A DNA stretch of 64,000 bases. Origin: Leptospiria bacterium. GTDB taxonomy: Bacteria; Spirochaetota; Leptospiria; Turneriellales; CBDBES01. The stretch covers positions 1,018,720-1,082,719 of the forward strand of contig OZ253494.1 of assembly GCA_965262015.1 (NCBI GenBank). The letters are read 5' to 3'. Both the position numbers and the translations under genes were made by a program. Below, piece by piece: positions 13,849-56,152 of the stretch. The number at the start of each line of letters is the position of its first letter. Within the stretch, counting starts at the first letter, position 1. Below the pieces are notes generated by a model. The model was not told the DNA's origin. It ran no database searches and saw only the letters and a program-made list of their open reading frames with translations.

Positions 13849-15060
13849 TTAATCTTCACTACCATGTGTACCAGCCTCTTTATCAGCTGCACGATGAGCA
13901 TTATTAGCGGCATCTTCACCTGTAGCTTCAGCTACTTTTCTGGCAGCTGTACTCACAGTATGGCTGGCTATTCCCGTTTGGCTTTCACTCAGAGCAAAGG
14001 CCTTATTATATGCTGCATCTCCAGCTGTTATACCTTTTTGGATGCGGTCCAGTCTATCACCAACACTATAGTCTATGGCCCAAGGGAATCTGACAGATAC
14101 ACTGCTGCGTCTAGGCAGAAATGTAGAAGCCAATGCAAATTTTCCGAATTTAACTTTGAGTTTCTTAGATCGAGCATCCTTATCAAAACTAAGGCCTTCT
14201 TTGATACTCATGATCTCAATAGATACTGTACTTGAGTTGTCAGAAGGAACAAAATAATCGCTGTTTGTGGTGCTGTCTGGACACCTATGTGGATCTAATC
14301 TGAATGTGATGGCTTCACTATTTGCTGGAATAGTAACCGTTATTGTGCTTTTTGTATTCCTAAGGGACTCTTCATTATCTCCCCCTATGAACTTAAAGGA
14401 ATAAAAATTAGCTGATAACGGGAAGCCGATACCAGGGTGGCCGATACCCCCTTGCACATTACAACTACCTCTATCATCTTCTATTATTGTCACACATTGG
14501 GTATTAACCCTAACCATAATAGGGCCTGTTCCAAGGCTCCCTGTTGTGAGAGTATCTGGACAGGGAGCCCCTGTCCCTGTAGTCGGTGCAGTACTGGGAA
14601 CAATCTTAGTATGGCGTGGCATAATCTTTGGGGCTCTATGATATGCTGTTGTCGTCCCACTACCTTCACTGTTTTCTATCGCCCACATTAAAGTAACTGT
14701 TACAGGCTTGTCTGTTGGAGTCATTCTTCTCACTGTATAAACAGGCAAACGATTGGTTTTGATTGTATTCTTTATTGTTGCTATTCCATCTTCCAAGCAA
14801 TCCGAGTATTCGCCTGAACAATCTAAACTTAGTGTGACATCCACCTCTGGCACCTCTGGCACCTCTGGCACCTCTGTACCAACCATATCGTCTGGATCGC
14901 TATCAATTACCGGAACGCTACCAGCCTTGCAATATGCAAAAAAACAAACAATTATTAGTAAGCCGTAAAGTAAATGGTAAAAGTATCTATGTGTGCTGTG
15001 CTGTGCTGTGCTGTGCTGTGCTGTGCTGTGCTGTGCTGTGCTGTGCTGTGTGGTTTTCAT
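13849..15060 (-). CDS. Surface/lipoprotein family A, paralog 1 (phase-variable leader, in frame = ON)
   Basis: MKTT(QHSTA)n-HRYFYHLLYGLLIIVCFFAYC signal-peptide-like N-terminus. It shares the blocks LDCS...IATI.NTIKT..LP.YT, FYSFKF, TF.LDPHRCPD and LKVKF with 26402-27608 and 27781-28992. Confidence 0.7.
   Translation of the reverse strand: MKTTQHSTAQHSTAQHSTAQHSTHRYFYHLLYGLLIIVCFFAYCKAGSVPVIDSDPDDMVGTEVPEVPEVPEVDVTLSLDCSGEYSDCLEDGIATIKNTIKTNRLPVYTVRRMTPTDKPVTVTLMWAIENSEGSGTTTAYHRAPKIMPRHTKIVPSTAPTTGTGAPCPDTLTTGSLGTGPIMVRVNTQCVTIIEDDRGSCNVQGGIGHPGIGFPLSANFYSFKFIGGDNEESLRNTKSTITVTIPANSEAITFRLDPHRCPDSTTNSDYFVPSDNSSTVSIEIMSIKEGLSFDKDARSKKLKVKFGKFALASTFLPRRSSVSVRFPWAIDYSVGDRLDRIQKGITAGDAAYNKAFALSESQTGIASHTVSTAARKVAEATGEDAANNAHRAADKEAGTHGSED
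14996..15050 (-). repeat. Pentanucleotide microsatellite (CACAG)11 on the coding strand
   Basis: 11 perfect CTGTG units on the plus strand, starting 10 nt after the ATG at 15060. They encode (HSTAQ)n. Confidence 0.95.
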
Positions 15061-26401: not shown

Positions 26402-27608
26402 TTACTCAGCACTACCATACTGGCCAGCAACTTTATCAACTATATCATAAATATCATTGTTAAATAATACATCGTTTTCTGTTTGTAGATCACTTAGTGT
26501 TTTCTTAGTTTTTTCCACAAGTGCATTCTTAATTGCTTGCTTAAAAACTGCGTCAGTTACACCCAATCCTCCATTAGAAAATTTAACTTTTAGGCTTTTG
26601 CTTGTCGTATCGTGAGCGAAGTCTGCAACTCGTTCGGCAACGGGGACAGCTGTTTGATCGAGACTCTTAATACCAACAGATATTGTTGATGAAGATTTAG
26701 TAGGAACTTCATAATCATCACTTGTACTGTTGTCTGGACATCTATGTGGATCTAAATGAAATGTAGTGCTTCGGCTACCTTCTGGAATCTCTACGCTTAT
26801 AAGATGTATTGCCCGCCCAGTTCCGGGAACTGTCCCATCCTCTGGATCTTCTATAGCTCTACCATCTGACTTTATGAACTTAAAGGAATAAAAAGTAGCT
26901 GACCATTTATGATCTACATTGTTAGTCTGCAATTTACAAGAATGCCTTGCTATCGTAGGATTATAGGACATATCATCATATTTGAAGTTAACAAGAGGAG
27001 GACTAACCTTTGGATGCAGATCGTATGCCTTATGTCTACTAAGACCCACGTTTCTCATAGTGCCAGTCGCATAAGTCTTGCTGCCCCTAACACTTCCTAT
27101 GCCACGACCAAAACCACTACCATCAGCGGCAGCCACGTCCCATCCTATCTTAACTGTTAAATCATATTCTGTAGAACCTTTTCTGCATAACGTATACATA
27201 GGTAAATTATCTGTTTTTATTGTATTGGTTATTGTTGCTATTTTGTTGCCTTCGGTCCCCTTCTTGCAATTCTTGTGACCTTTGCTTGAACAATCTAAAC
27301 GCAGGAAGACATCTTCTTCTGGTGGATCAACATCACATGTATGAACATCCTTAATTGGTGGGTCGTTACTATTCGGTGGGTCGTTGGGGTTGGGGCTATT
27401 CGTCGGATCGCTAGCATCCACTGGACTGCTATCTCCTCCTGGACTGCAATACGTAAAAAAACAAATAGTTATTAGCAGGCCATAAAGTAACTGGTAAAAG
27501 TATCTATGTGTTGTGCTGTTGTGCTGTTGTGCTGTTGTGCTGTTGTGCTGTTGTGCTGTTGTGCTGTTGTGCTGTTGTGCTGTTGTGCTGTTGTGCTGTT
27601 GTGCTCAT
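26402..27608 (-). pseudogene. Surface/lipoprotein family A, paralog 2: reversibly frameshifted (phase OFF)
   Basis: The ATG at 27608 reads MSTTAQQHN... and stops at TAG 27506-27504. The body frame (339 codons, 26402-27421) is open upward through the repeat but has no start and is closed by TGA 27607-27605. The ATG-to-CAT(HRYFY, 27508) distance is 100 nt. Confidence 0.8.
27511..27605 (-). repeat. Octanucleotide microsatellite (CAGCACAA) x 11 + 7 nt on the coding strand
   Basis: Perfect TTGTGCTG units counted on the plus strand from 27511. The tract abuts the ATG (27606-27608). Confidence 0.95.
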
Positions 27609-27780: not shown

Positions 27781-28992
27781 TTACTCAGCACTACCATACT
27801 CTCCAGCAACTTTATCAACTACATCATAAATTTCATTGTTAAATAATACATTCCTTATTTTTTCTAGCTGATTTAGTACACCAGACGCCATCTCCGTACC
27901 ACCCGTCTCCACCACATTACCATTCATATTCAAACTTACTTCACCACTACTCACCGTTACACTACCCACCTCTTTACCATCTGCAAATGTGGTCTCAAGT
28001 GCAGTCTCAATTGCAGTCTTAAACGTTATCCCCCCTATAGAAGTATCCAATTCCTCATTAGAAAATTTAACTTTTAGGCCTTTGCTTGTGTCATCGGAAG
28101 TAAGAGCTACACTCTGTTCGGCGGTATCGAGACTCTTAATACCAACAGATATTTTTGATGAAGATGCAGGAGGAGCGTCATAATCATCACTTGTACTGTC
28201 GTCTGGACATCTATGTGGATCTAAACGAAATGTAGTGCTTTGGCTACCTGCTGGAATCTCTACGGTTATACGATTTATTGCCTCCCCAGTTTGGGGAGGC
28301 AATAAATCTATAGCTCTACCATCTGAATCTAGGAACTTAAAGGAATAAAAAGTAGCTGAAAGATCATCAGACCGCACTATACAAGAATGCCTCTTTGGAG
28401 ATGTATTACCAGAGTTGTAACGAGCATTAAAGTATCGGAAGTTAACAAGAGGGGGACTAACCTTTGGATGCAGATCATACGCAGAAGTCGACCCACTACT
28501 TCCTAAGCCACGACCAAAACCACTACCCTCACTGCCAGTCACGTCCCATTTTAACTCAACTGTTAAATCATATTCTGTAGAACCTTTTCTGCATAACGTA
28601 TACATAGGTAAATTATCTGTTTTTATTGTATTGGTTATTGTTGCTATTTCGTTGCCTTCGGTCCCCTTGCAACCCCTATAACCGCTTGAACAATCTAAAC
28701 GCAGGAAGACATCTTTGTCTGGTGGATCAACATCACATATATGAACATCTTCGTCTGGTGGAGGAGGGCTACTACTTACCGGATCGTTACCAGCCTTGCA
28801 ATATGTAAAAAAACAAATAGTTATTAGCAGGCCATAAAGTAACTGATAAAAGTATCTATGTGTTGTGCTGTTGTGCTGTTGTGCTGTTGTGCTGTTGTGC
28901 TGTTGTGCTGTTGTGCTGTTGTGCTGTTGTGCTGTTGTGCTGTTGTGCTGTTGTGCTGTTGTGCTGTTGTGCTGTTGTGCTGTTGTGCTCAT
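27781..28992 (-). CDS. Surface/lipoprotein family A, paralog 3 (in frame = ON)
   Basis: M(STTAQQHN)5STT-HRYFYQLLYGLLITICFFTYC, then the family blocks LRLDCSS, IATITNTIKTDNLPMYTLCRKGSTEYDLTV, ATFYSFKF, TTFRLDPHRCPD and LKVKF. The C-terminus VLFNNEIYDVVDKVAGEYGSAE is shared with paralog 2. Confidence 0.75.
   Translation of the reverse strand: MSTTAQQHNSTTAQQHNSTTAQQHNSTTAQQHNSTTAQQHNSTTHRYFYQLLYGLLITICFFTYCKAGNDPVSSSPPPPDEDVHICDVDPPDKDVFLRLDCSSGYRGCKGTEGNEIATITNTIKTDNLPMYTLCRKGSTEYDLTVELKWDVTGSEGSGFGRGLGSSGSTSAYDLHPKVSPPLVNFRYFNARYNSGNTSPKRHSCIVRSDDLSATFYSFKFLDSDGRAIDLLPPQTGEAINRITVEIPAGSQSTTFRLDPHRCPDDSTSDDYDAPPASSSKISVGIKSLDTAEQSVALTSDDTSKGLKVKFSNEELDTSIGGITFKTAIETALETTFADGKEVGSVTVSSGEVSLNMNGNVVETGGTEMASGVLNQLEKIRNVLFNNEIYDVVDKVAGEYGSAE
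28863..28989 (-). repeat. Octanucleotide microsatellite (CAGCACAA) x 15 + 7 nt
   Basis: Perfect TTGTGCTG units on the plus strand from 28863, abutting the ATG (28990-28992). The ATG-to-CAT(28860) distance is 132 nt, which is in frame. Confidence 0.95.
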
Positions 28993-39295: not shown

Positions 39296-39560
39296 GGACA
39301 TATGTTACAGTTATTGCCTAGGCCACTTTCATAGATTCGTAAAATCTCTTTGTGGTGTTAAAAAATCTTCTTAGTTGTTTGATTGTGTTCTTGATCTGTT
39401 TTTTAGCAATGCTAAAAGGAGTTTCCATTGGTTGCTCTCTTTATTTTTAGTATCTTAAAGAAAAACGGCTTATGAACGCCTTAAACTGTCTAAAAATGGA
39501 ACCTACGCTTTCAAATTTTCTAAGACTTCATAGAAAAAATGGTGGTAAGAGATTAATCGC
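39296..39560 (-). mobile_element. Internally deleted IS remnant (5' leader/start fused to the 3' end of an rve-type transposase gene)
   Basis: The minus strand encodes METPFSIAKKQIKNTIKQLRRFFNTTKRFYESMKVA*. The last ~70 bp (39300-39366) are essentially identical to 45010-45077, and the 5' part is homologous to 2850-2965. Confidence 0.45.
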
Positions 39561-41392: not shown

Positions 41393-41476
41393 TTGTTTTT
41401 TATTTATTATCTTTCCAGGTTCTTTTTTTTCAGTAATTAAATATTCGTTTTGCTAACAATCTGTCAGAAAAATGTT

Positions 41477-41625
41477 ATGTATTTGGAAGGTCTATTTTCT
41501 CTAGCGGGCGGAGTTGCAGGTCTACTTCTTAGTAGGGTTACCCTTTTAGTATTCTGGTATTAGCTGGATTTATTGCCCTTTCTGGCGTTGCTGTTTTAGT
41601 TAGCATTGTTTTGGTTGGCTCGTGA
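41477..41625 (+). pseudogene. Degenerate fragment of an HME-RND (CzcA/CusA-like) transporter gene
   Basis: Across frameshifts it reads ...LAGGVAGLLLS..PF.YSGIS..AGFIALSGVAVLVSIVLVGS*, which resembles the TM11-12 block GTPFSISAGVGFIALFGVAVLNG. Confidence 0.4.
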
Positions 41626-41669
41626 GAAACGGCTTATCACAGCCACAACGCAACACAGAGGAATTGTGA

Positions 41670-42879: not shown

Positions 42880-42994
42880 GAAAGGCCATCAGAAGGGTTA
42901 GTAGCGTCGGCAGAGGGGAGAGGGGGCACCTCCACATTGGACGGTGCTTACCACCAATACGGCAAACACGCTGATCGAGAAGTATCTTTTGAAT
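42880..42994 (-). pseudogene. 5' fragment of a third NHL-family gene (signal-peptide region only)
   Basis: The reverse complement reads FKRYFSISVFAVLVVSTVQCGGAPS... It matches 44380-44465 apart from a 7-nt insertion. Promoter, ATG, heptamer tract and body are all missing. Confidence 0.6.
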
Positions 42995-43134
42995 AAAAGG
43001 TTTATAACCGCAATATAAAATTAGAAAAACTAATTTTATATGAAACATGGTGATAATCAAAAAACAGCTAAAAAAAGAAAACTAAATACCCCACCCCCAA
43101 CGTGGGATGGGTATAATAAGATACGAGATTACAA

Positions 43135-44588
43135 TTATTGTGGTATGGTTATTTTGCGGATACGATCGTTACCCGTATCTGCCACATATACATTGCCTAA
43201 CTTATCAACCGCTACATCTTCAGGCCTATTAAATTGTACTGAAGTACCTGTGCCATCAGAACTACCACTACCGCCACCCGCCAATGTTGTAACCACACCA
43301 TCAGGTGTTATTTTGCGGATACGATGATTATTAAGATCTGCCACATATACAAACCCTTTACTATCAACTGCCACTCCATAAGGCTTATTAAATTTTGCTG
43401 AAGTACCCACACCATCAGAACTACCACTACCGCCACCCGCCAATGTTGTAACCACACCATTAGGTGTTATTTTTTGGATACGATAATTATCACGATCTGC
43501 CACATATACATTGTTTGAACCATCAACTGCTACACTAACAGGCCTATTAAATTGTGCTGGACTCCCACCACCTGCAAATAAGCTAACCGTACCCATACCA
43601 CTAGAATCAAGCGTTATTTTATGGATATGATTGTTCCCAGTATCTGCCACGTATACAATCCCTGAACTATCAACCGCTACTCCAAAAGGTTCGCTAAGAC
43701 TAGTACCCGTCAAGGTATCAACCACACCTGCAGACGTTATCTTACGGATACTATTGTTGAATCTATCTGCCACATATACAAACCCATCACTATCAACCGC
43801 TACACCTTCAGGCTGCCGGAATTGTGCTACATTACCCGGACCATTCATAAAACCTCCTCCTTCTATCATCCCTCCCATACCATCCGCAGTCATACCAGTA
43901 CCTGCGAATGAGCTAACCACACGACCAGGCGTTATTTTGCGGATACGATTGTTCTGACGATCTACTACATATATATTGTCTAAACTATCAACCGCTATTC
44001 CAGCAGGATTATTAAATTCTGCTGAAGTACCTATGCCATCCATACAGCTGGAGGAGGGTGGAGTACATGGCATGCCTCCACCCTTGTTACCACCCGCCAA
44101 CGTTGTAACCGTAACCTCGGCACAGGTTTTATCACTTTTTAAGGCATAATAACTATTGCAAGAAGTACATTTTTCTATACCCTTCCCAGGAGCTTTACCT
44201 GTTGATTCAACACCATTCGTACAAATAAAATTGAATGGTCTGCAAAGTTCACCATTTTTCTCAAAACCAGTATTGCAAGAAACACATTTTTCTGTGTTAG
44301 CGGTTGAAACCTTTTCTGTTGAGGGAACACCATTCGTACAAATAGGATCAAACTGTCCAGACCCACCACCAGAAGGGATAGTAGCGTCGGCAGAGGGGGC
44401 ACCTCCACATTGGATGGTGCTTACCACCAATACGGCAAATACGCCGATCGAGAAGTATCTTTTGAATACATGGAAAGAATGTTGACCTTGATCAACAATT
44501 CGTTCTAAAAATTTAGGAAAAGACTTATAGGTTGCTTGTTGCTTGTTGCTTGTTGCTTGTTGCTTGTTGCTTGTTGCTTGTTTATCAT
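43135..44588 (-). pseudogene. NHL-repeat lipoprotein, paralog 2: reversibly frameshifted (phase OFF)
   Basis: Body ORF 43135-44430 (431 codons, NHL blades). The ATG at 44588 is followed by 7 heptamer units. ATG-to-body offset is 158 nt, the same wrong frame as paralog 1. Upstream in the body frame is ...HSFHVFKRYFSIGVFAVLVVSTIQCGGA. Confidence 0.75.
44532..44580 (-). repeat. Heptanucleotide microsatellite (CAAGCAA)7
   Basis: 7 perfect TTGCTTG units on the plus strand, 8 nt after the ATG (44588). Confidence 0.95.
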
Positions 44589-44650
44589 TTTAGTACCTCT
44601 CTTTACTGCACCAATTATGATGCATCGAGACATGAAGTTCTCGTTGGCAT

Positions 44651-44680: not shown

Positions 44681-44765
44681 TTGTTTTTTCATTTTTTATC
44701 TTTTCATGTTCTTTTTCTTTAGTAATTAAATATTTAATTTGCTAACAAATTGTCAGAAGAATATT

Positions 44766-44898
44766 ATGTATTTGGAAAGTCTATTTGCTTTAGCGGGCGA
44801 AGTTGCAGGTCTACTTCTTAGTAGGGTTACCTTTTAGTATTCTGGTATTAGCTGGATGTATTACTCTTTCTGGTGTTGCTGTTTTGGTTGGCTCGTGA
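44766..44898 (+). pseudogene. Second copy of the HME-RND gene fragment
   Basis: Co-duplicated with the NHL unit. It matches 41477-41625 but carries a short internal deletion. Confidence 0.35.
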
Positions 44899-45009
44899 GA
44901 AACGGCTTATCACAGCCACAACGCAACACAGAGGAATTGCGTGAATACATACTCTAAAGAGTACAAGTATCAAGTATTTGTAAGTGATTGGCTGTGGAAT
45001 CCCATAGAT

Positions 45010-45600
45010 ATATGTTACAGTTATTGCCTAGGCCACTTTCATAGATTCGTAAAATCTCTTATGTGGTGTTAAAAAATTAAAAGAAGAATGTGGGCTTTTT
45101 GTATTATACCACGTGAGATATTCATCCATCTTTTTTTGTATTTCTTATATGGATAAATTTGACTAAGAATCCATATCTGCTTCTTTTCCTAAATTTCAAC
45201 GAAATCTTTCTATCTTGCTGTTTAATTGAGGTGTACAAGGTTTAATCAAATGATGATGGATATATTATGTTCTTGTAATATCTGTTCAAAACCACATAGC
45301 CTATCTTTCTCTTTTCGAGTACTATTTAGAAAAGAAATATATCTGTAGGTAAATTCCACACTATTGTCAGTTTGTATAACTTTAGGTTTACCATAAGCTC
45401 CATAAAAAGCTATTGACAGATTTAGTATAAAATGGTTGGTGTAGCCATCTAACGCTCATCTTACTCACTTTAAGTAGCTGTATCCCTACCTTTATGGCGA
45501 CTCAGACCCCAAACGAATAAATATTCACTAATATCATTCATATCGTGTCTGCTCGCTAGCAGATAAAGTCTCCTATTGTATACTTACCTGAATCCCTTAT
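45010..45600 (-). mobile_element. Degenerate rve (DDE integrase-core) transposase pseudogene
   Basis: Minus-strand translations give AFYGAYGKPKVIQTDNSVEFT (the TDNG.EF core) and MDEYLTWYNTKSPHSSFNFLTPHKRFYESMKVA* (C-terminus). Several stops and frameshifts lie between them. Confidence 0.55.
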
Positions 45601-45654
45601 ACCTATACCTTGTTGTCAATACTAATCTGTGAACTACATGCAGATAGATTATAT

Positions 45655-48600
45655 ATGAAACATAATATGAGATTACTATTAATTATACTAGGAATATTTG
45701 GTATACATAGTTTATATTCAATACAAACACCTGAAAAAATCCAATTTCAGAAAATAGATGTTCAAGATCATACCATAGTCAATCAAATAACAGGTAGTGT
45801 ATTTACTCAAGATCACCATCCGCTATCTAATATTCATCTTTGTTTGATAAAATTAGATAAAATTTCACAAAAGCAACAGAATAATAGATTGCATTGCTAT
45901 AAAACAACTATTTCAGATAAACAGGGATATTTTAAAAGCACAATCATAGATCAAGGTACTTATCAAATTAAATATGAAGATAAACAACATAAGTATAAAA
46001 CATATATAAGCCCCTCTATTGTAGTTCGTGAGAATCATCTCATACAAGGTCAACAGTGGAATATGAAACCTGCATATTTAAAAATAACTGAACAATATTT
46101 TAAACTAAAAAAGGAAGTACGTATTTACATAAAAAATAAATTAAATAATCAACTTGTTAAACAGAAAATGTGGATACAGTTACAACTTGACCTTGATAAT
46201 ACACCTGTAAAATGTACATTATATGAGGAAGAGTTTTATAGTTGTCCTTTATACAAAGAAATAGAAATTACTAAACATGAATCTACAGAACTTAAACTAT
46301 GGCTAAAAGTAACATACCAAGATAATACTTTTGACATACAAAATCAAATTATTATTAAAAATCCAGTCAATCAACCAGTTAAAGATAGGTTGGTAATATC
46401 AAAACAATCTAATAACTATAAGTTAGTCGAAGAGAATAAACAGTATTTATACACACTTTTATGTGATACTCAGTTAGCCCAAGATAGTGTAACATTAGAA
46501 TTTCAAACTTATTTTCCTCGTATAGATCAAGAGAGTGATTTTTTTGATTCTCATAAGATTATAGCTAATTTCATGGGAGATATTACAAAATCAATTGCCT
46601 TATCTTTTACTATAAATAAGCAAAATTTTAGACAGGTAATTTCTCTAAAAAATTTTGATCACAAGTTGGCAACTATAGAACATAATTATTCACATCGTAA
46701 CTTTAACATCCAAATGTATATCTATAAGAAAAAGAAAAATGGTAGTTGGGAACTAAATAATAACTACCAGAATCCCCTTAAACAAAGTTATGCAATAGAA
46801 GCCTCGTCCATTAATTACATCACTATTAATCTAAAGAATGTAACTACAACAAAGAAGCAAACAAATATACAAGTATCTGGAAATATTTGCCTAGACATAC
46901 CCGATGAAAAAAATTGCAGTAAAGAAGATATCCCTAATAGAGCTGAGATAATACTTAAACTTCCAAATAAAAATTTATTCTTTTTTACAAATTCTAGTAA
47001 ACAGAATGTATTTAGTGAAATCATCATAGAATCTTTAAAAGCATCTCAAATCAAAGAAATTAGTATATCATATAGACCCTCTACGTACCAGACCGTAAAT
47101 CTAATTAAATGCTCCCCTGAATCCACAATGCCTGATTGTTTTGTATGGGATGACGAAAACAAACACTTACAATTACCTTACATTAATTTAATCCATAAAA
47201 AGAATTATATCCAAGAATTATATTTAGAACTTACTAGTATTAATAGTCAAAGTAAACGTCTGCCTTTCTCATTACCTATTAAATTAGAAATAGAAGGGAA
47301 TTCTTTTTTTGTAGAAACAAGTCAAAATTCTAGTACAACTGTAAGGGTGGAACTTAATCAAGGATGCTATATCGGCGAAAAAATAAATATTACCATCACA
47401 CCAACCATCCCTCTAGCACTTAAACAAATTTTATCTACTATACGTCCAAAATCAGACATACCATACCAAACAAGTATTACTTGCACACCCACTAATCATT
47501 ATCACCTAAATGTCATGTACAAGCATGGTATTTATATTAAAGGTTCTGTATTTAATACATCTCACCAGGGAGCTCAGGACTTATCTCTTATGATAAAATA
47601 TCATGGAAATATCTTGCATGAAATACGTACTAATGCAGAAGGTCAGTTTTTATTCCACCTAACAGATACATTTTTAAAACTACCGAGTAAGGAAGTATTA
47701 CATATCTATACTAAGGATGTCTCTAAACCTCTTAAGGAGATCTCGCTCTATAATTATAAAATAGGTGATACAATAAATACAGAAATTATTATTCAAGATA
47801 GTGATACTGGAATAGAACTATGGTCTCTTGTAGGACACGTATACGATGAAAACAACCTGTCTGGTATTGAGAAAGTTAAGGTACAATTACATAAAACCCA
47901 TCTTGATCAAAAAATAGATATTGGGCAAGCCTATACCCAAAATAATTGTCAAGATAAGTCATCCTGTATCTTTCAAATATCTCATCTCTCTATTCCTAAA
48001 CGATATGACATTACTAGTGTACTAAAATCATACTCGATTAGTATGGAACATCCTTATTATCAGGCCAGAGACTCTATCAGTGTAGCAGATATGATAACAA
48101 ATATTAGTATCCTAAAAGAGAAGAAACAAATCATTATTCATGCACAAAAAGATAATTTATTTTTAAGACCAATAAAAACGATATCTCTGCTAATAAAATC
48201 TAGTATGAGTTTTACATCCCAAAACATTACACCCTCTAGCGTATTTATAAAATATATCCAAAACAATATACTGGTTCAGATCCAAGATTCTACAAAAAAT
48301 ATTTTATATAAGGGTAAATTAGAGTCACCTATTGTACTTACATGGGAACAGGGTATTATGCAAGCATTACAAAATGAAAAAACAAATAATATAAAATTTC
48401 AATATTTTTTAAAGGAGCCCCATGAGATTCATATGGTGATGGAAGAAGTGCAAAGCTTAAAAGAATTATGCTCCGTTAATATAACAGAAATTCATTTAAA
48501 ACCTCATTTAGTATTCAAAGCACAAATTCATAAACAGCAATTTGATATTGTAGCTTTACAAATGAATTTTTCTCAAGCCTTGTTACAAAGAACTAAATTA

Positions 48601-50073
48601 CCAGCTTCTTTCCATCTTAATGATATGGTATTAAATAAAAAAAATTGGGAGATCGCATTTTTAGACATGACATGGCAACCAAGTACAATGCGCTACCTTC
48701 CCCATAAAAACAAGATTGAAATTGGATATTTGACTTGGTCATCTATTCAGCCTACGATACAAATTCGTCAGACAAAATCTTTTTTGAAACAGATGTTTCA
48801 TTTTTACTTTGTTGGCTGTAAAAATAAGAGATGCTTAATAATAAATGAAAAATTAGCTTCATATACTTTTTTATTTCAAGCATCCTATAAAAATTGGCTG
48901 GGCTGGAATGACATAATCGAATATGAAGATCTCAAAGAACAAATAAGTTTTACTTTATCCATAGATAATATTACCATTACACAGCCAATTGAGGTAACTA
49001 CTAAACTAAAATATGATAGTGATTCAGAAGGTCCTTTTAAAATACAAATAGCACCTAGTTTAAAAATCAAGAATCTTTCCACAGATATCATTAACCATTG
49101 GTATAAAAATGGCATCCCTAATACTAAAGATATGAAATTGAATTTACTGGATTATAATACCCTAACAACACATAAAGAGCCTGATAAAGAAATTTGGATA
49201 TTTAGAATGCAAATTGTACACAATAAACTGCCTGCAAATTTAACCCAGTATCCTTTGCATAAAAATATTCCTAAGGATGTATTAAAACAAATGTCTTTTG
49301 TGGAACAAAATAAAAATGCGTATGTACGAGGCTGCTATGCTTCTTTTTTTTACCCTCGTTACAAAAACTATGTAAGATGGGATAAATTATCATGGGTTGA
49401 TGCTAAAGGTAAAAAAGTAAAAACAAATAAGGGTAAGGGTTCGCATGTATATATTGGTTGTCAGAATACAAATCGATTTAGTCGTGCCTGTCCTAGTAGA
49501 AAATATCACTGGCAAGAAGTAGAGCAACATGACATCCAAGGTTATAAGGAGTATACTCGACGTAAGCGAAATAATAACGAGAGAGGTAACCCTTATGGAT
49601 GCAATACATTTTGTACGTTAGCTGTCAGTGCCATGGCATATGATTATCTGGGTTTTGATCTACAAGCCCCACCAAAATCCATAAAAATTGGTAACCAAAC
49701 TTTTACAGATTTAAATGGAAATAATATATCATATGTTCTAGAAAATGACTTATTAAATTTAAACTCTACTACATATACTTTGAAACAATGGTATTTAGCA
49801 GAACAAAAAGCTAAGGAGGGTCAATTAGTTTTTATTACACTAGATAACTGCACCTCGAAATTAAATAGGCAATGTAGAACAGGTCATATTGCAGTCCTCA
49901 CTGGAGGAAGAAAAACTAATCAGAAAACAAAGAAGAATGCGGTAAATAATTTGTACATATACCAGGCAGGAGCTTCTTTTGGATTTATGACTTTAGAACA
50001 AGGTTTTGGATATTATATTTATGGTAGACCATCAAAAATTAAATTTGTGGTAGTACCACGCCCTACTTCATGA
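45655..50073 (+). CDS. Giant secreted protein: multiple CarboxypepD_reg/Ig-like modules plus a C-terminal papain-like (NlpC/P60-CHAP-Tae4-like) Cys-His domain
   Basis: Signal peptide MKHNMRLLLIILGIFGIHSLYS. Modules include ITGSVFTQDHHPLSNIHL...DKQGYFKSTIIDQGTYQIKY and IKGSVFNTSHQGAQDLSL...NAEGQFLFHL. In the C-terminus NPYGCNTFCTLAVSAMAYDYLG (Cys codon 49612-49614) is followed 91 aa later by TGHIAVLTGG (His codon 49885-49887). Confidence 0.7.
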   Translation: MKHNMRLLLIILGIFGIHSLYSIQTPEKIQFQKIDVQDHTIVNQITGSVFTQDHHPLSNIHLCLIKLDKISQKQQNNRLHCYKTTISDKQGYFKSTIIDQGTYQIKYEDKQHKYKTYISPSIVVRENHLIQGQQWNMKPAYLKITEQYFKLKKEVRIYIKNKLNNQLVKQKMWIQLQLDLDNTPVKCTLYEEEFYSCPLYKEIEITKHESTELKLWLKVTYQDNTFDIQNQIIIKNPVNQPVKDRLVISKQSNNYKLVEENKQYLYTLLCDTQLAQDSVTLEFQTYFPRIDQESDFFDSHKIIANFMGDITKSIALSFTINKQNFRQVISLKNFDHKLATIEHNYSHRNFNIQMYIYKKKKNGSWELNNNYQNPLKQSYAIEASSINYITINLKNVTTTKKQTNIQVSGNICLDIPDEKNCSKEDIPNRAEIILKLPNKNLFFFTNSSKQNVFSEIIIESLKASQIKEISISYRPSTYQTVNLIKCSPESTMPDCFVWDDENKHLQLPYINLIHKKNYIQELYLELTSINSQSKRLPFSLPIKLEIEGNSFFVETSQNSSTTVRVELNQGCYIGEKINITITPTIPLALKQILSTIRPKSDIPYQTSITCTPTNHYHLNVMYKHGIYIKGSVFNTSHQGAQDLSLMIKYHGNILHEIRTNAEGQFLFHLTDTFLKLPSKEVLHIYTKDVSKPLKEISLYNYKIGDTINTEIIIQDSDTGIELWSLVGHVYDENNLSGIEKVKVQLHKTHLDQKIDIGQAYTQNNCQDKSSCIFQISHLSIPKRYDITSVLKSYSISMEHPYYQARDSISVADMITNISILKEKKQIIIHAQKDNLFLRPIKTISLLIKSSMSFTSQNITPSSVFIKYIQNNILVQIQDSTKNILYKGKLESPIVLTWEQGIMQALQNEKTNNIKFQYFLKEPHEIHMVMEEVQSLKELCSVNITEIHLKPHLVFKAQIHKQQFDIVALQMNFSQALLQRTKLPASFHLNDMVLNKKNWEIAFLDMTWQPSTMRYLPHKNKIEIGYLTWSSIQPTIQIRQTKSFLKQMFHFYFVGCKNKRCLIINEKLASYTFLFQASYKNWLGWNDIIEYEDLKEQISFTLSIDNITITQPIEVTTKLKYDSDSEGPFKIQIAPSLKIKNLSTDIINHWYKNGIPNTKDMKLNLLDYNTLTTHKEPDKEIWIFRMQIVHNKLPANLTQYPLHKNIPKDVLKQMSFVEQNKNAYVRGCYASFFYPRYKNYVRWDKLSWVDAKGKKVKTNKGKGSHVYIGCQNTNRFSRACPSRKYHWQEVEQHDIQGYKEYTRRKRNNNERGNPYGCNTFCTLAVSAMAYDYLGFDLQAPPKSIKIGNQTFTDLNGNNISYVLENDLLNLNSTTYTLKQWYLAEQKAKEGQLVFITLDNCTSKLNRQCRTGHIAVLTGGRKTNQKTKKNAVNNLYIYQAGASFGFMTLEQGFGYYIYGRPSKIKFVVVPRPTS

Positions 50074-53908: not shown

Positions 53909-56152
53909 TTACTCCGACAACCTAAATTGTACTAATTGGTATGTTTTACTCATAATTGGATTGTTAAGCTTATCATAACTTGGTTTGTAACGTTTCCTTT
54001 TGTAAGCTTTTACAGCTGCTCGATCGAGACCAAAACCTAACTTTCTACCAATGATTTTAGCATTCAGCACCTTACCAGTCTTAGATATCACTAACTCCAA
54101 CATAATATTTCCTTGAATAGCATTTCGCCGAGCAGCTATTGGATAATCGATCACAACATTAGACTTGTCTAATGGTACAGGCATGCTGGCACCAATAGAT
54201 AAAGGATTTATAGCCTGGGCTAGAAATTTTTTCCGCTCTAGTGCTTTCTTTTTAGCTTGCTTGGCTTTCTTTTTAGCTTGCTCGGCTTTCTTTTTAGCTT
54301 GCTCGGCTTTCTTTTTAGCTTGCTCGGCTTTCTTTTTAGCTTGCTCGGCTTTCTTTTTAGCTCGCTCGGTGGTCTTTTTAGCTCGCTCGGTGGTCTTCTG
54401 CCCAGCTTTCTCTTTAGCTTGCTTGGCTTCCTCTTCAGCTTGCTTGGCTTTCTCTTTAGCTTGCTTGGCTTTCTCTTTAGCTCGCTTGGCTTCTTCTTTA
54501 GCTCGCTTAGTTTCTTTTTCAGCTTGCCTGGCTTCTTCTTTAGCTCGCTTAGTTTCTTCTTCAGCTTCCTTGGCTTCTTCTTCAGCTTCTTTAATTCTAT
54601 CTAATCTTTTAGAACGAAGCTTTTCAATGGGTATAGGAGTACCTGGTATTGTTAATTGCGTTTGTATCTTAGCTTGTTCTTGAATAATCTCTTCAGGCTG
54701 TTTATCAAATGGTACAAGTATTTTCTCAGGAACTTTGTCTAACTTTACTTGTTCTGGTATAATTTTTTCTTCTTCTGGTATTTCTTTCTGTACTTCTTCC
54801 TGTACTTCTTTTTTGCTCTTAGACGTAGAGACTATATTAAAAGCATAAATAATCTTCTTATCCTTCTTAGATAGCTGGGCAGTATAGGCTGCCTGCTCTG
54901 AGGCATACTCCACTTCTATCTGCCAATAATAACGCCCAACATCTAGATCATTAACAATAAAGCTTCTACCGGACACTAGTTTATTAATAATTATATTGCG
55001 CATCTCTTTGTCTTTGGCAACAAGAAGTCGTACAGGCACTGAACGTTCTAAATCCCAACGAAATCGAATAGCTTCACCCAACTTTGATATAGAATTATAA
55101 GCAGGAGACTGTAATAAGAGCCCTACCGAGCCTTCAATACGGAAATCATGGGGCACAGAAGCGGTTAATTGCCCATCACGCTGTCCAGTGACCTGCCAAT
55201 ACCATGTACCAGCTGACAAGGCAACCTTCTTTTGGAATCCATTGGTCTTATATATAGCTTTTTTATCAAAAGTTTTTGTAGAAGAAATATACAACTCATA
55301 CGAATCTAGATCCACTAATGCATTCCATCTAAAAAGAATATCATACTTAGATTTACGACTGTCTAAAACAAACAGACCGGCTGGCTCAGGATGAATACTT
55401 AAAATATCAATTTGATGAAGTGCTTTTTTTACTCTTCCACTCTCTTTATCCTCGACAATAGATAAAACCTCACCTGCTATGATAATGTCTTCACTTAGAT
55501 CTTCCTCTACCTGCCCTGGTTTATCCTTTTGTCTCTTTGCACTCTTCTTTTTTTGCCCATCTTTTGGTGCACCAAGCTCATTCTGAGAGACTGCAGCAAC
55601 TTTCTCTGTGGGCGGGGGCTTTGCCTTATTTAAACGTACTGAACCACTCTCCACATATACATTAGTTTGTTGATTAATTCTTTGTAAAGTAACTTCGGCA
55701 TCACCAATATTAATGATAGAATCACCCAAACGTATTTTAGTAGTATCTGTTTCTGAAGCCCCAGTGGCTCGTAAAATACCACTGTTAAAGACTAAACCAA
55801 GATCTTGACCATGAACCTGTATTTGCAACAAAGAGTTAGATTCTATTTCAATAATACTACCTGTTCTAAGAACAATCATTGCACTCGAATTCTCTTGTGT
55901 AAGGATATAGTCGTTATAATATACATCTGAATCTATGGCAATTACTTCCCAAATAAAACGGCCTGATAGCTTCCGTAATACAACGTTAGATGTATGCACT
56001 ACTTTACCTAGAACTTGTGCACCTGATTCATGAGAAAGCGAACGGGTAAAATGTAAATAGACAAGAACAGACCAAATAATAGAATTTAGTAACAAAAATA
56101 ATATAACTTTTGTACCGCCCTGACTTTTATTAAATGAAGGATTTTGTAACAT
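53909..56152 (-). CDS. Membrane-anchored FecR-like / K-E-A-repeat / TonB C-terminal domain fusion protein
   Basis: TM segment VILFLLLNSIIWSVLVYLHF. FecR-like block ILTQENSSAMIVLRTGSIIEIESNSLLQI. About 110 aa are almost pure K/E/A/Q. The TonB_C-like end is YPIAARRNAIQGNIMLELVISKTGKVLNAKII...AVKAYKRKRYKP. Confidence 0.7.
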   Translation of the reverse strand: MLQNPSFNKSQGGTKVILFLLLNSIIWSVLVYLHFTRSLSHESGAQVLGKVVHTSNVVLRKLSGRFIWEVIAIDSDVYYNDYILTQENSSAMIVLRTGSIIEIESNSLLQIQVHGQDLGLVFNSGILRATGASETDTTKIRLGDSIINIGDAEVTLQRINQQTNVYVESGSVRLNKAKPPPTEKVAAVSQNELGAPKDGQKKKSAKRQKDKPGQVEEDLSEDIIIAGEVLSIVEDKESGRVKKALHQIDILSIHPEPAGLFVLDSRKSKYDILFRWNALVDLDSYELYISSTKTFDKKAIYKTNGFQKKVALSAGTWYWQVTGQRDGQLTASVPHDFRIEGSVGLLLQSPAYNSISKLGEAIRFRWDLERSVPVRLLVAKDKEMRNIIINKLVSGRSFIVNDLDVGRYYWQIEVEYASEQAAYTAQLSKKDKKIIYAFNIVSTSKSKKEVQEEVQKEIPEEEKIIPEQVKLDKVPEKILVPFDKQPEEIIQEQAKIQTQLTIPGTPIPIEKLRSKRLDRIKEAEEEAKEAEEETKRAKEEARQAEKETKRAKEEAKRAKEKAKQAKEKAKQAEEEAKQAKEKAGQKTTERAKKTTERAKKKAEQAKKKAEQAKKKAEQAKKKAEQAKKKAKQAKKKALERKKFLAQAINPLSIGASMPVPLDKSNVVIDYPIAARRNAIQGNIMLELVISKTGKVLNAKIIGRKLGFGLDRAAVKAYKRKRYKPSYDKLNNPIMSKTYQLVQFRLSE
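54242..54600 (-). repeat. In-frame 21-nt tandem repeats encoding (AEQAKKK)n and related K/E/A heptads
   Basis: Seven consecutive 21-nt units at 54242-54388 (GGCTTTCTTTTTAGCTTGCTC and variants), followed by degenerate copies to ~54600. Confidence 0.9.

Follow-up and report, generated by a model that had tools for sequence, protein, structure and literature searches.

A heptanucleotide tract in the leader of a predicted NHL-repeat lipoprotein gene: a probable translational phase-variation switch in a Leptospira-related spirochaete

Organisation of the paralog 2 locus

The window, that is, the whole stretch of 64,000 nt analysed here, belongs to a Leptospira-related spirochaete whose genome is a single contig of 1.92 Mb with 34.4% G+C and whose DnaB is ~50% identical to the DnaBs of Leptospiraceae MAGs. 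On the minus strand of the window lie two paralogous genes of the NHL-repeat type, paralog 1 and paralog 2, both of which carry an array of the heptamer AAGCAAC just downstream of the start codon (Table 1). In paralog 2 the elements follow each other in the order AAAGAGAGG-N7-ATG ATA AAC, (AAGCAAC)x7 and CTATAAGTCTTTTCCTAAATTTTTAG, and the tract begins 9 nt after the ATG. TRF reported the array at 44531-44582 with a period of 7, 7.4 copies and 100% matches, the partial unit AAC carrying the repeat on to 44582. A previous sequence-only reading had placed the seven units at 44532-44580, which is the same 49 nt read in another phase. A perfect heptamer array of this length is not explicable by chance.

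Table 1. Coordinates of the features of the two NHL loci within the window
Feature	Position	Strand	Remarks
Promoter-like TTGACA-18 nt-TATTCT, paralog 2	44680-44651	-	Consensus scan, 10/12 matches; putative function
Shine-Dalgarno-like AAAGAGAGG, paralog 2	44604-44596	-	7 nt 5' of the ATG; sequence reading
Start codon ATG, paralog 2	44588-44586	-	Direct sequence reading; also opens the in-frame ORFs of tract-less paralogs
(AAGCAAC)x7 tract, paralog 2	44579-44531	-	7.0 units by regex count
Leader and signal peptide in the body frame, ..YKSFPKFLERIVDQGQHSFHVFKRYFSIGVFAVLVVSTIQ-C, paralog 2	44530-44407	-	Frame-2 translation
End of OFF frame, A_AAT_TTT then TAG, paralog 2	44514-44508, then 44507-44505	-	X_XXY_YYZ form; P K F L in the body frame
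Mature part, paralog 2	44406-43135	-	Gly/Ser linker, Cys-rich modules, six NHL repeats; stop 43137-43135
Terminator-like hairpin and T run, 3' of paralog 2	43111-43090	-	Intrinsic-terminator-like
Orphan signal-peptide fragment	43000-42916	-	Direct repeat, 93% to 44389-44473; without gene body
Paralog 1 switch: ATG, (AAGCAAC)x13, OFF-frame stop	41299-41297, 41290-41200, 41176-41174	-	
Paralog 1 leader, signal peptide and NHL body	41199-39702	-	Cys codon 41075-41073
Terminator-like element after paralog 1	39678-39658	-	

Because AAGCAAC contains no T on the coding strand, the tract is free of stop codons in all frames. The frame opened by the ATG of paralog 2 comprises 27 codons (MINKQQATSNKQQATSNKQPISLFLNF) and ends at the TAG. 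The ORF of the body has TTG 44430 as its listed start (431 aa), yet it is open upstream across the whole tract, and the body is uninterrupted over 464 codons. The distance between ATG and body is 158 nt (44588-44430; 158 mod 3 = 2), so that both the start codon and the offset given in the sequence-only reading were reproduced, and the frame is repaired by the gain of one unit (+7 nt, offset 165) or by the loss of two. In the body frame, no ATG, GTG or TTG is met downstream of the tract until TTG 44430, halfway through the hydrophobic core, so that the ATG upstream of the tract is left as the only sensible start. Two other candidates were discarded: TTG 44430 itself lies inside the hydrophobic core and would give a product without signal peptide, and an in-frame ATG further upstream, at 44633, is not conserved among the paralogs.

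Since promoter-like and terminator-like sites bracket paralog 2, the gene appears as a unit of its own, and each of the two genes is bracketed in this way. TTGACA is conserved across all cassette copies found in the genome, and AAAGAGAGG is kept in 9/9 heptamer loci and in the tract-less paralogs described below. An Rfam search of the 5' UTR and leader gave no known RNA element, and the hairpins of the UTR reached only z = -2.1.

Downstream of the tract, the body frame reads YKSFPKFLERIVDQGQHSFHVFKRYFSIGVFAVLVVSTIQ-C-GG, which amounts to an extended hydrophilic leader followed by two basic residues, then a hydrophobic core and lastly a Cys (in paralog 2, codon 44409-44407). Two Cys-rich modules of the form F[DN]PICTNG..TEKC.SC follow the linker. 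Paralog 2 is a member of the NHL-repeat beta-propeller proteins, as the Pfam model PF01436 matched it in six stretches with E = 8.3e-52 and 171 bits against a cut-off of 20; no NCBIfam model scored above its cut-off. Lipoprotein features are represented by KR followed by YFSIGVFAVLVVSTIQ and C, with Gln at position -1. The classical lipobox rule (PROSITE PS51257) requires [AGS]-C, and Gln at -1 falls outside it; when the paralogs were aligned at the presumed lipobox, several showed ISC and others VQC. From these features we predict that the product of paralog 2 is a surface lipoprotein, probably an exported and lipidated protein with a six-bladed NHL propeller.

In paralog 1, the offset between ATG and body is 200 (mod 3 = 2), so that both paralogs are in the same frame state, as the sequence-only reading had noted. 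The coincidence is real and of little weight on its own, as it would arise by chance in one case out of three. It had also been proposed that both genes are out of frame and one unit-gain away from being in frame, and this was borne out by the finding that the sole break lies at the tract and that both bodies are intact. The flanks, described as identical, are so along ~30 nt upstream and ~65 nt downstream of the tract and not throughout; over the 163 nt around and including the tract, the two paralogs are 99% identical. An orphan signal-peptide fragment sits between both genes (Table 1), probably as a relic of recombination or deletion.

Heptamer loci and their relatives in the genome

A repeat census of the whole genome gave nine AAGCAAC tracts, three octamer tracts (TGTTGTGC) and three pentamer tracts, all of them perfect, as well as several poly-C runs of 11-14. 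The nine heptamer loci contain 7, 13, 10, 13, 7, 13, 10, 9 and 15 units, so that unit number differs among paralogous loci from 7 to 15. All nine carry one and the same cassette (TTGACA, Shine-Dalgarno and ATG (A/C)TA AAC), and in all nine the body is intact (435-508 codons), the frame being broken only at the tract. In the assembly, 8/9 loci are OFF and one is ON; the latter (G000 335038) has 7 units and is in frame by virtue of four extra bases 3' of the tract. We refer to the remaining eight as standard loci. Among them, the cassette (209 nt upstream plus leader) is 86-98% identical, vs 70-92% for the mature parts.

The NHL family comprises ~19 paralogs, nine of them with the heptamer switch. 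A tree of the NHL domains was star-like and unresolved except for three pairs or triplets, one of which joins paralog 2 with paralog 1 and the copy at G000 1787630; this tree did not resolve the tract-bearing genes as a single clade. Four further paralogs (G000 1863157, 1113417, 1867571 and 1865351) possess the same promoter, Shine-Dalgarno and ATG without a long tract. They are in frame from the cassette ATG (e.g. MINKQLNKSFPKFLEKIVDQGQHSLKVFKTYLLISLFAVLMVSSVQC), with ORFs of 520-959 codons, and read into PKFLE..VDQ..signal peptide, as do the bodies of the heptamer loci. ATG and body are therefore parts of one ORF, and the ON frame that the sequence-only reading had assumed is also that of the tract-less paralogs, in which this ATG leads straight into the shared leader and signal peptide. 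Judging from these paralogs, the long n-region is a family trait, and the heptamer array may have grown out of a leader like theirs (AAACAAACAAC...), which has the look of a seed sequence.

Other repeats were observed in related positions. Outside the window, two less closely related genes of the NHL family carry poly-C tracts, at G000:C1:736950-736963 (C14) and 1317221-1317232 (C12); in both, the tract immediately follows the codon of the lipobox Cys and would be read as a run of Pro. The copy at 1317221 is out of frame, and poly-C would represent a second type of switch within the family. In the same genome, a second lipoprotein family has tracts of 5- or 8-nt units in the corresponding place, 4 of its copies being ON and 2 OFF. 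Its leader reads ..RYFYHLLYGLLI..CFF.YC, and pentamers (TGTGC/CACAC/ACACC) or octamers (TGTTGTGC) are located 4-14 nt after the ATG. The loci of this second family are at 14992-15050, 27509-27605 and 28861-28989 of the window and at G000 349328, 754093 and 864930.

With respect to the distribution of the switch, the four-unit tract was present in 1/34 genomes of the order, namely the present one, and the protein sequence of leader and signal peptide in 1/21, again this genome alone. BLAST searches found the cassette in 0/40 relatives, apart from two chance-level matches of 27-48 nt, and the exact leader pattern gave 0 matches in genome contigs and 0 in metagenome contigs. An exact-protein look-up for paralog 2 gave no match, and a search of 5.8 billion proteins returned only the window's own protein at 100%, followed by generic NHL proteins at ≤53%.

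Tract length as a switch and the competing readings

Two hallmarks of a contingency locus are found at paralog 2: a perfect tandem repeat, whose unit is not a multiple of 3, lies inside the 5' end of an ORF, and a change in unit number restores an otherwise intact full-length ORF. We consider it probable that paralog 2 is a simple-sequence contingency locus subject to slipped-strand translational phase variation of the opa/neuO type. That the tract changes in length, and that expression follows tract length, we infer from the sequence. According to this model, slipped-strand mispairing during replication would add or remove 7-nt AAGCAAC units, and translation of the monocistronic paralog 2 would depend on how many of them stand between start codon and signal peptide. 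The ATG would be joined to the body only when the unit number n equals 2 mod 3 (5, 8, 11 ...), and at the present 7 units ribosomes would stop after the 27 codons of MINKQQATSNKQQATSNKQPISLFLNF and no lipoprotein would be made. The tract would be placed in the n-region of the signal peptide, with the Cys as residue 63 at 8 units. As the tract lies within the part that would be removed with the signal peptide, the mature protein would be the same at any ON length. As the bodies have diverged behind a control cassette that stays conserved, a clonal population could in this way vary which of the NHL surface proteins it shows.

The distribution of states across the genome is not the one expected of a simple, unbiased switch. 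Among the standard loci, n = 1 mod 3 was found in 6/8, n = 0 mod 3 in 2/8 and ON in 0/8, the last figure having a probability of (2/3)^8 = 0.04 if states are random and independent. When all nine tracts are taken, n = 1 mod 3 occurs in 7/9 (7, 7, 10, 10, 13, 13, 13), for which the probability is ~0.025 for any one class, assuming independent loci. Candidate explanations for the excess of n = 1 and the lack of ON loci are chance among related loci or shared ancestry, a contraction bias (loss of one unit from arrays of 8, 11 and 14), counterselection of expression in the population sampled, or some property of the n = 1 state itself.

One such property would be a leaky third state. In n = 1 alleles the OFF frame ends with C CTA AAT TTT TAG and the body frame is exactly -1 to it, so that a ribosome shifting by -1 at A_AAT_TTT, perhaps while stalled by the adjacent TAG, would yield a low amount of full-length protein; 'OFF' would then mean 'low', a state that might be favoured over n = 0 mod 3. 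The sequence-only reading had considered a ribosomal event of +1/-2, a direction that proved wrong, as the body frame requires -1 (or +2). In paralog 2 an X_XXY_YYZ heptamer is indeed present in the ATG frame with the downstream ORF in the -1 frame, the OFF frame ends exactly on this heptamer plus the stop, the 97 nt 3' of the site fold into a hairpin with z = -2.5, and 6/8 standard loci are in the n = 1 mod 3 state. However, the bases of A_AAT_TTT encode P-K-F-L-E in the in-frame tract-less paralogs, so that no frameshift function has to be invoked for their conservation. The hairpin, rich in AT, is a weak one whose solid part begins ~10 nt from the slip site, a Shine-Dalgarno-like stimulator is lacking upstream, and the 6/8 excess falls short of significance (p ~0.15 when OFF states are considered) and comes from related loci. 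Neither conservation nor a stimulatory structure beyond the needs of coding was found, and paralog 2 was not classed with the -1 frameshift genes. We regard the leaky state as very unlikely, and just as doubtful is the three-state dial to which it would lead, with full expression at n = 2 mod 3, low expression at n = 1 through a -1 slip at A_AAT_TTT and none at n = 0. If such a dial were true, a single leader would bring together slippage of DNA and of ribosomes, and n = 1 mod 3 would be overrepresented because the 'low' state had been selected for.

Still less likely, in our view, is a reading of the eight out-of-frame NHL genes as decaying pseudogenes, with tracts that are no more than frozen relics. 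The fact that 8/9 loci are out of frame would fit with decay, as would dN/dS values near 0.7-0.9 and the existence of real wrecks in the family (a truncated gene copy, G000 1114567, and the orphan fragment between the two paralogs, 42916-43000 of the window). Against this, 8/8 bodies are uninterrupted over their 435-508 codons and the tracts are 100% perfect. Between paralog bodies dN/dS ranged from 0.55 to 1.16, which is not decisive, and we dropped it as a proof of function and used instead a simulation of neutral substitution on the paralog 2 ORF, in which copies free of stops were scored. Stop-free copies amounted to ~2% at 7.5% substitutions per site, which is half of the 14.6% difference between paralogs 1 and 2, and to 0.02% at 15%. 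Given that ORFs seldom survive neutral drift in the simulation and that the bodies of the paralogs diverge by 8-30%, the ORFs must have been kept by selection; it is the lack of stops and frameshifts, and not dN/dS, which is high, that supports purifying selection. Nine intact bodies, nine perfect tracts and a control cassette better conserved than the coding bodies together argue against decay. The least likely of the readings is a consensus artefact, in which the assembly would report a wrong or minority unit count and paralog 2 would really be ON in most cells. Any assembler collapses the repeat tracts of a mixed population to one allele; on the other hand, 15/15 tracts are whole numbers of perfect units with ON and OFF states both present, an error of a whole 7-nt unit is improbable in a single-contig assembly, and a miscounted unit would leave the nature of the switch unchanged.

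Taking slipped-strand phase variation as the preferred reading, two consequences may be drawn. For annotation, the eight OFF NHL genes should not be labelled as pseudogenes, and the true start would be the ATG upstream of the tract. For biology, a 1.9-Mb genome in which two lipoprotein families together have 15 or more repeat switches of non-triplet unit length, with poly-C tracts in addition, would suggest a variable surface and a life exposed to hosts or predators. The mechanism is a textbook one; these loci are of value for the catalogue and for the biology, and add no new concept. Leptospira and its relatives do not figure among the bacteria for which repeat-driven phase variation is known. 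A full-text literature search gave no report of repeat-driven phase variation in relatives of Leptospira, and a 2025 review of the phase-variation field leaves Leptospira and its relatives unmentioned.

Comparison with known systems and neighbouring sequences

The opa genes of Neisseria, which carry (CTCTT)n in the region coding for the leader peptide (PMC3960869), resemble the NHL loci in being a multi-copy family of surface proteins with a non-triplet repeat in the signal-peptide coding region, so placed that the mature protein is constant at any ON length. The opa copies switch independently by slipped-strand mispairing and most of them are OFF at a given time, while switching of the NHL genes is predicted from their sequence. 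The unit is 5 nt long in opa and 7 nt in the NHL loci, where the repeat occupies the hydrophilic n-region before the hydrophobic core; the products differ as well, an 8-stranded beta-barrel in opa and here an NHL beta-propeller with a lipobox-like Cys, and the host is in our case a Leptospira-related spirochaete. Another likeness is offered by neuO of the CUS-3 prophage of E. coli K1, which has (AAGACTC)n in its 5' coding region (PMC13001214). Both systems share a heptanucleotide directly after the start codon, the ON state at one residue class and a wide range of unit counts. In contrast, neuO is a single-copy gene for a cytoplasmic O-acetyltransferase that retains the repeat in the protein, whereas there are nine copies here, with a unit of unrelated sequence and a repeat that would be lost when the signal peptide is cleaved off.

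In Mycoplasma, the variable lipoprotein families of the vlp/vsa type combine a conserved 5' cassette (promoter, start and lipoprotein signal peptide) with diverged mature parts and a repeat-driven ON/OFF switch, and the NHL loci likewise have a conserved 5' cassette before diverged mature parts. Switching is transcriptional in vlp, by way of a promoter poly-A tract, and vsa relies on site-specific inversion; the NHL switch would be translational. Among spirochaetes, tpr and tp0126 of Treponema pallidum have poly-G tracts in their promoters that cause length-dependent phase variation by altering transcription (PMC7864442). Phase variation by repeat length, putative outer-membrane proteins and a spirochaetal host are common to both cases, but the repeat is a homopolymeric G in promoters in T. 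pallidum and a heptamer within the ORF, altering the reading frame, in the NHL loci.

The surroundings of the cassettes were also inspected. About 270 nt upstream of each NHL cassette are co-duplicated with 88-100% identity (41396-41666 and 44685-44939 of the window, + strand). These two stretches resemble broken transmembrane segments, and at other members of the NHL family the matching stretch gave a hit to the AcrB/RND transporter model PF00873 (E = 4e-9) over its final 33 positions. A remnant of a transporter gene seems to travel with the NHL cassette. Both NHL genes are flanked by short minus-strand ORFs ending in ..KRFYESMKVA (39318-39428 and 45028-45129), and the ORF at 45028 (..YNTKSPHSSFNFLTP..) is reminiscent of what we take to be the C-terminal end of a transposase integrase domain. 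Paralog 2 is adjoined by a 1487-aa ORF on the + strand (45610-50073), for which a Pfam search gave no match at E ≤ 1e-5. Imperfect tandem repeats of 21 nt (also 42/63 nt) are located at 54243-54588, inside a 747-aa minus-strand ORF (53909-56152), and constitute an in-frame coding repeat and not a frame switch. Finally, the 24-residue Cys-rich module of the NHL proteins (..PICTNG..ST.KVSTANTEKC) is repeated dozens of times in other, very large ORFs, the longest of 1862 aa; such ORFs occur genome-wide, e.g. at G000 587636-590971 and 1801377-1803875.
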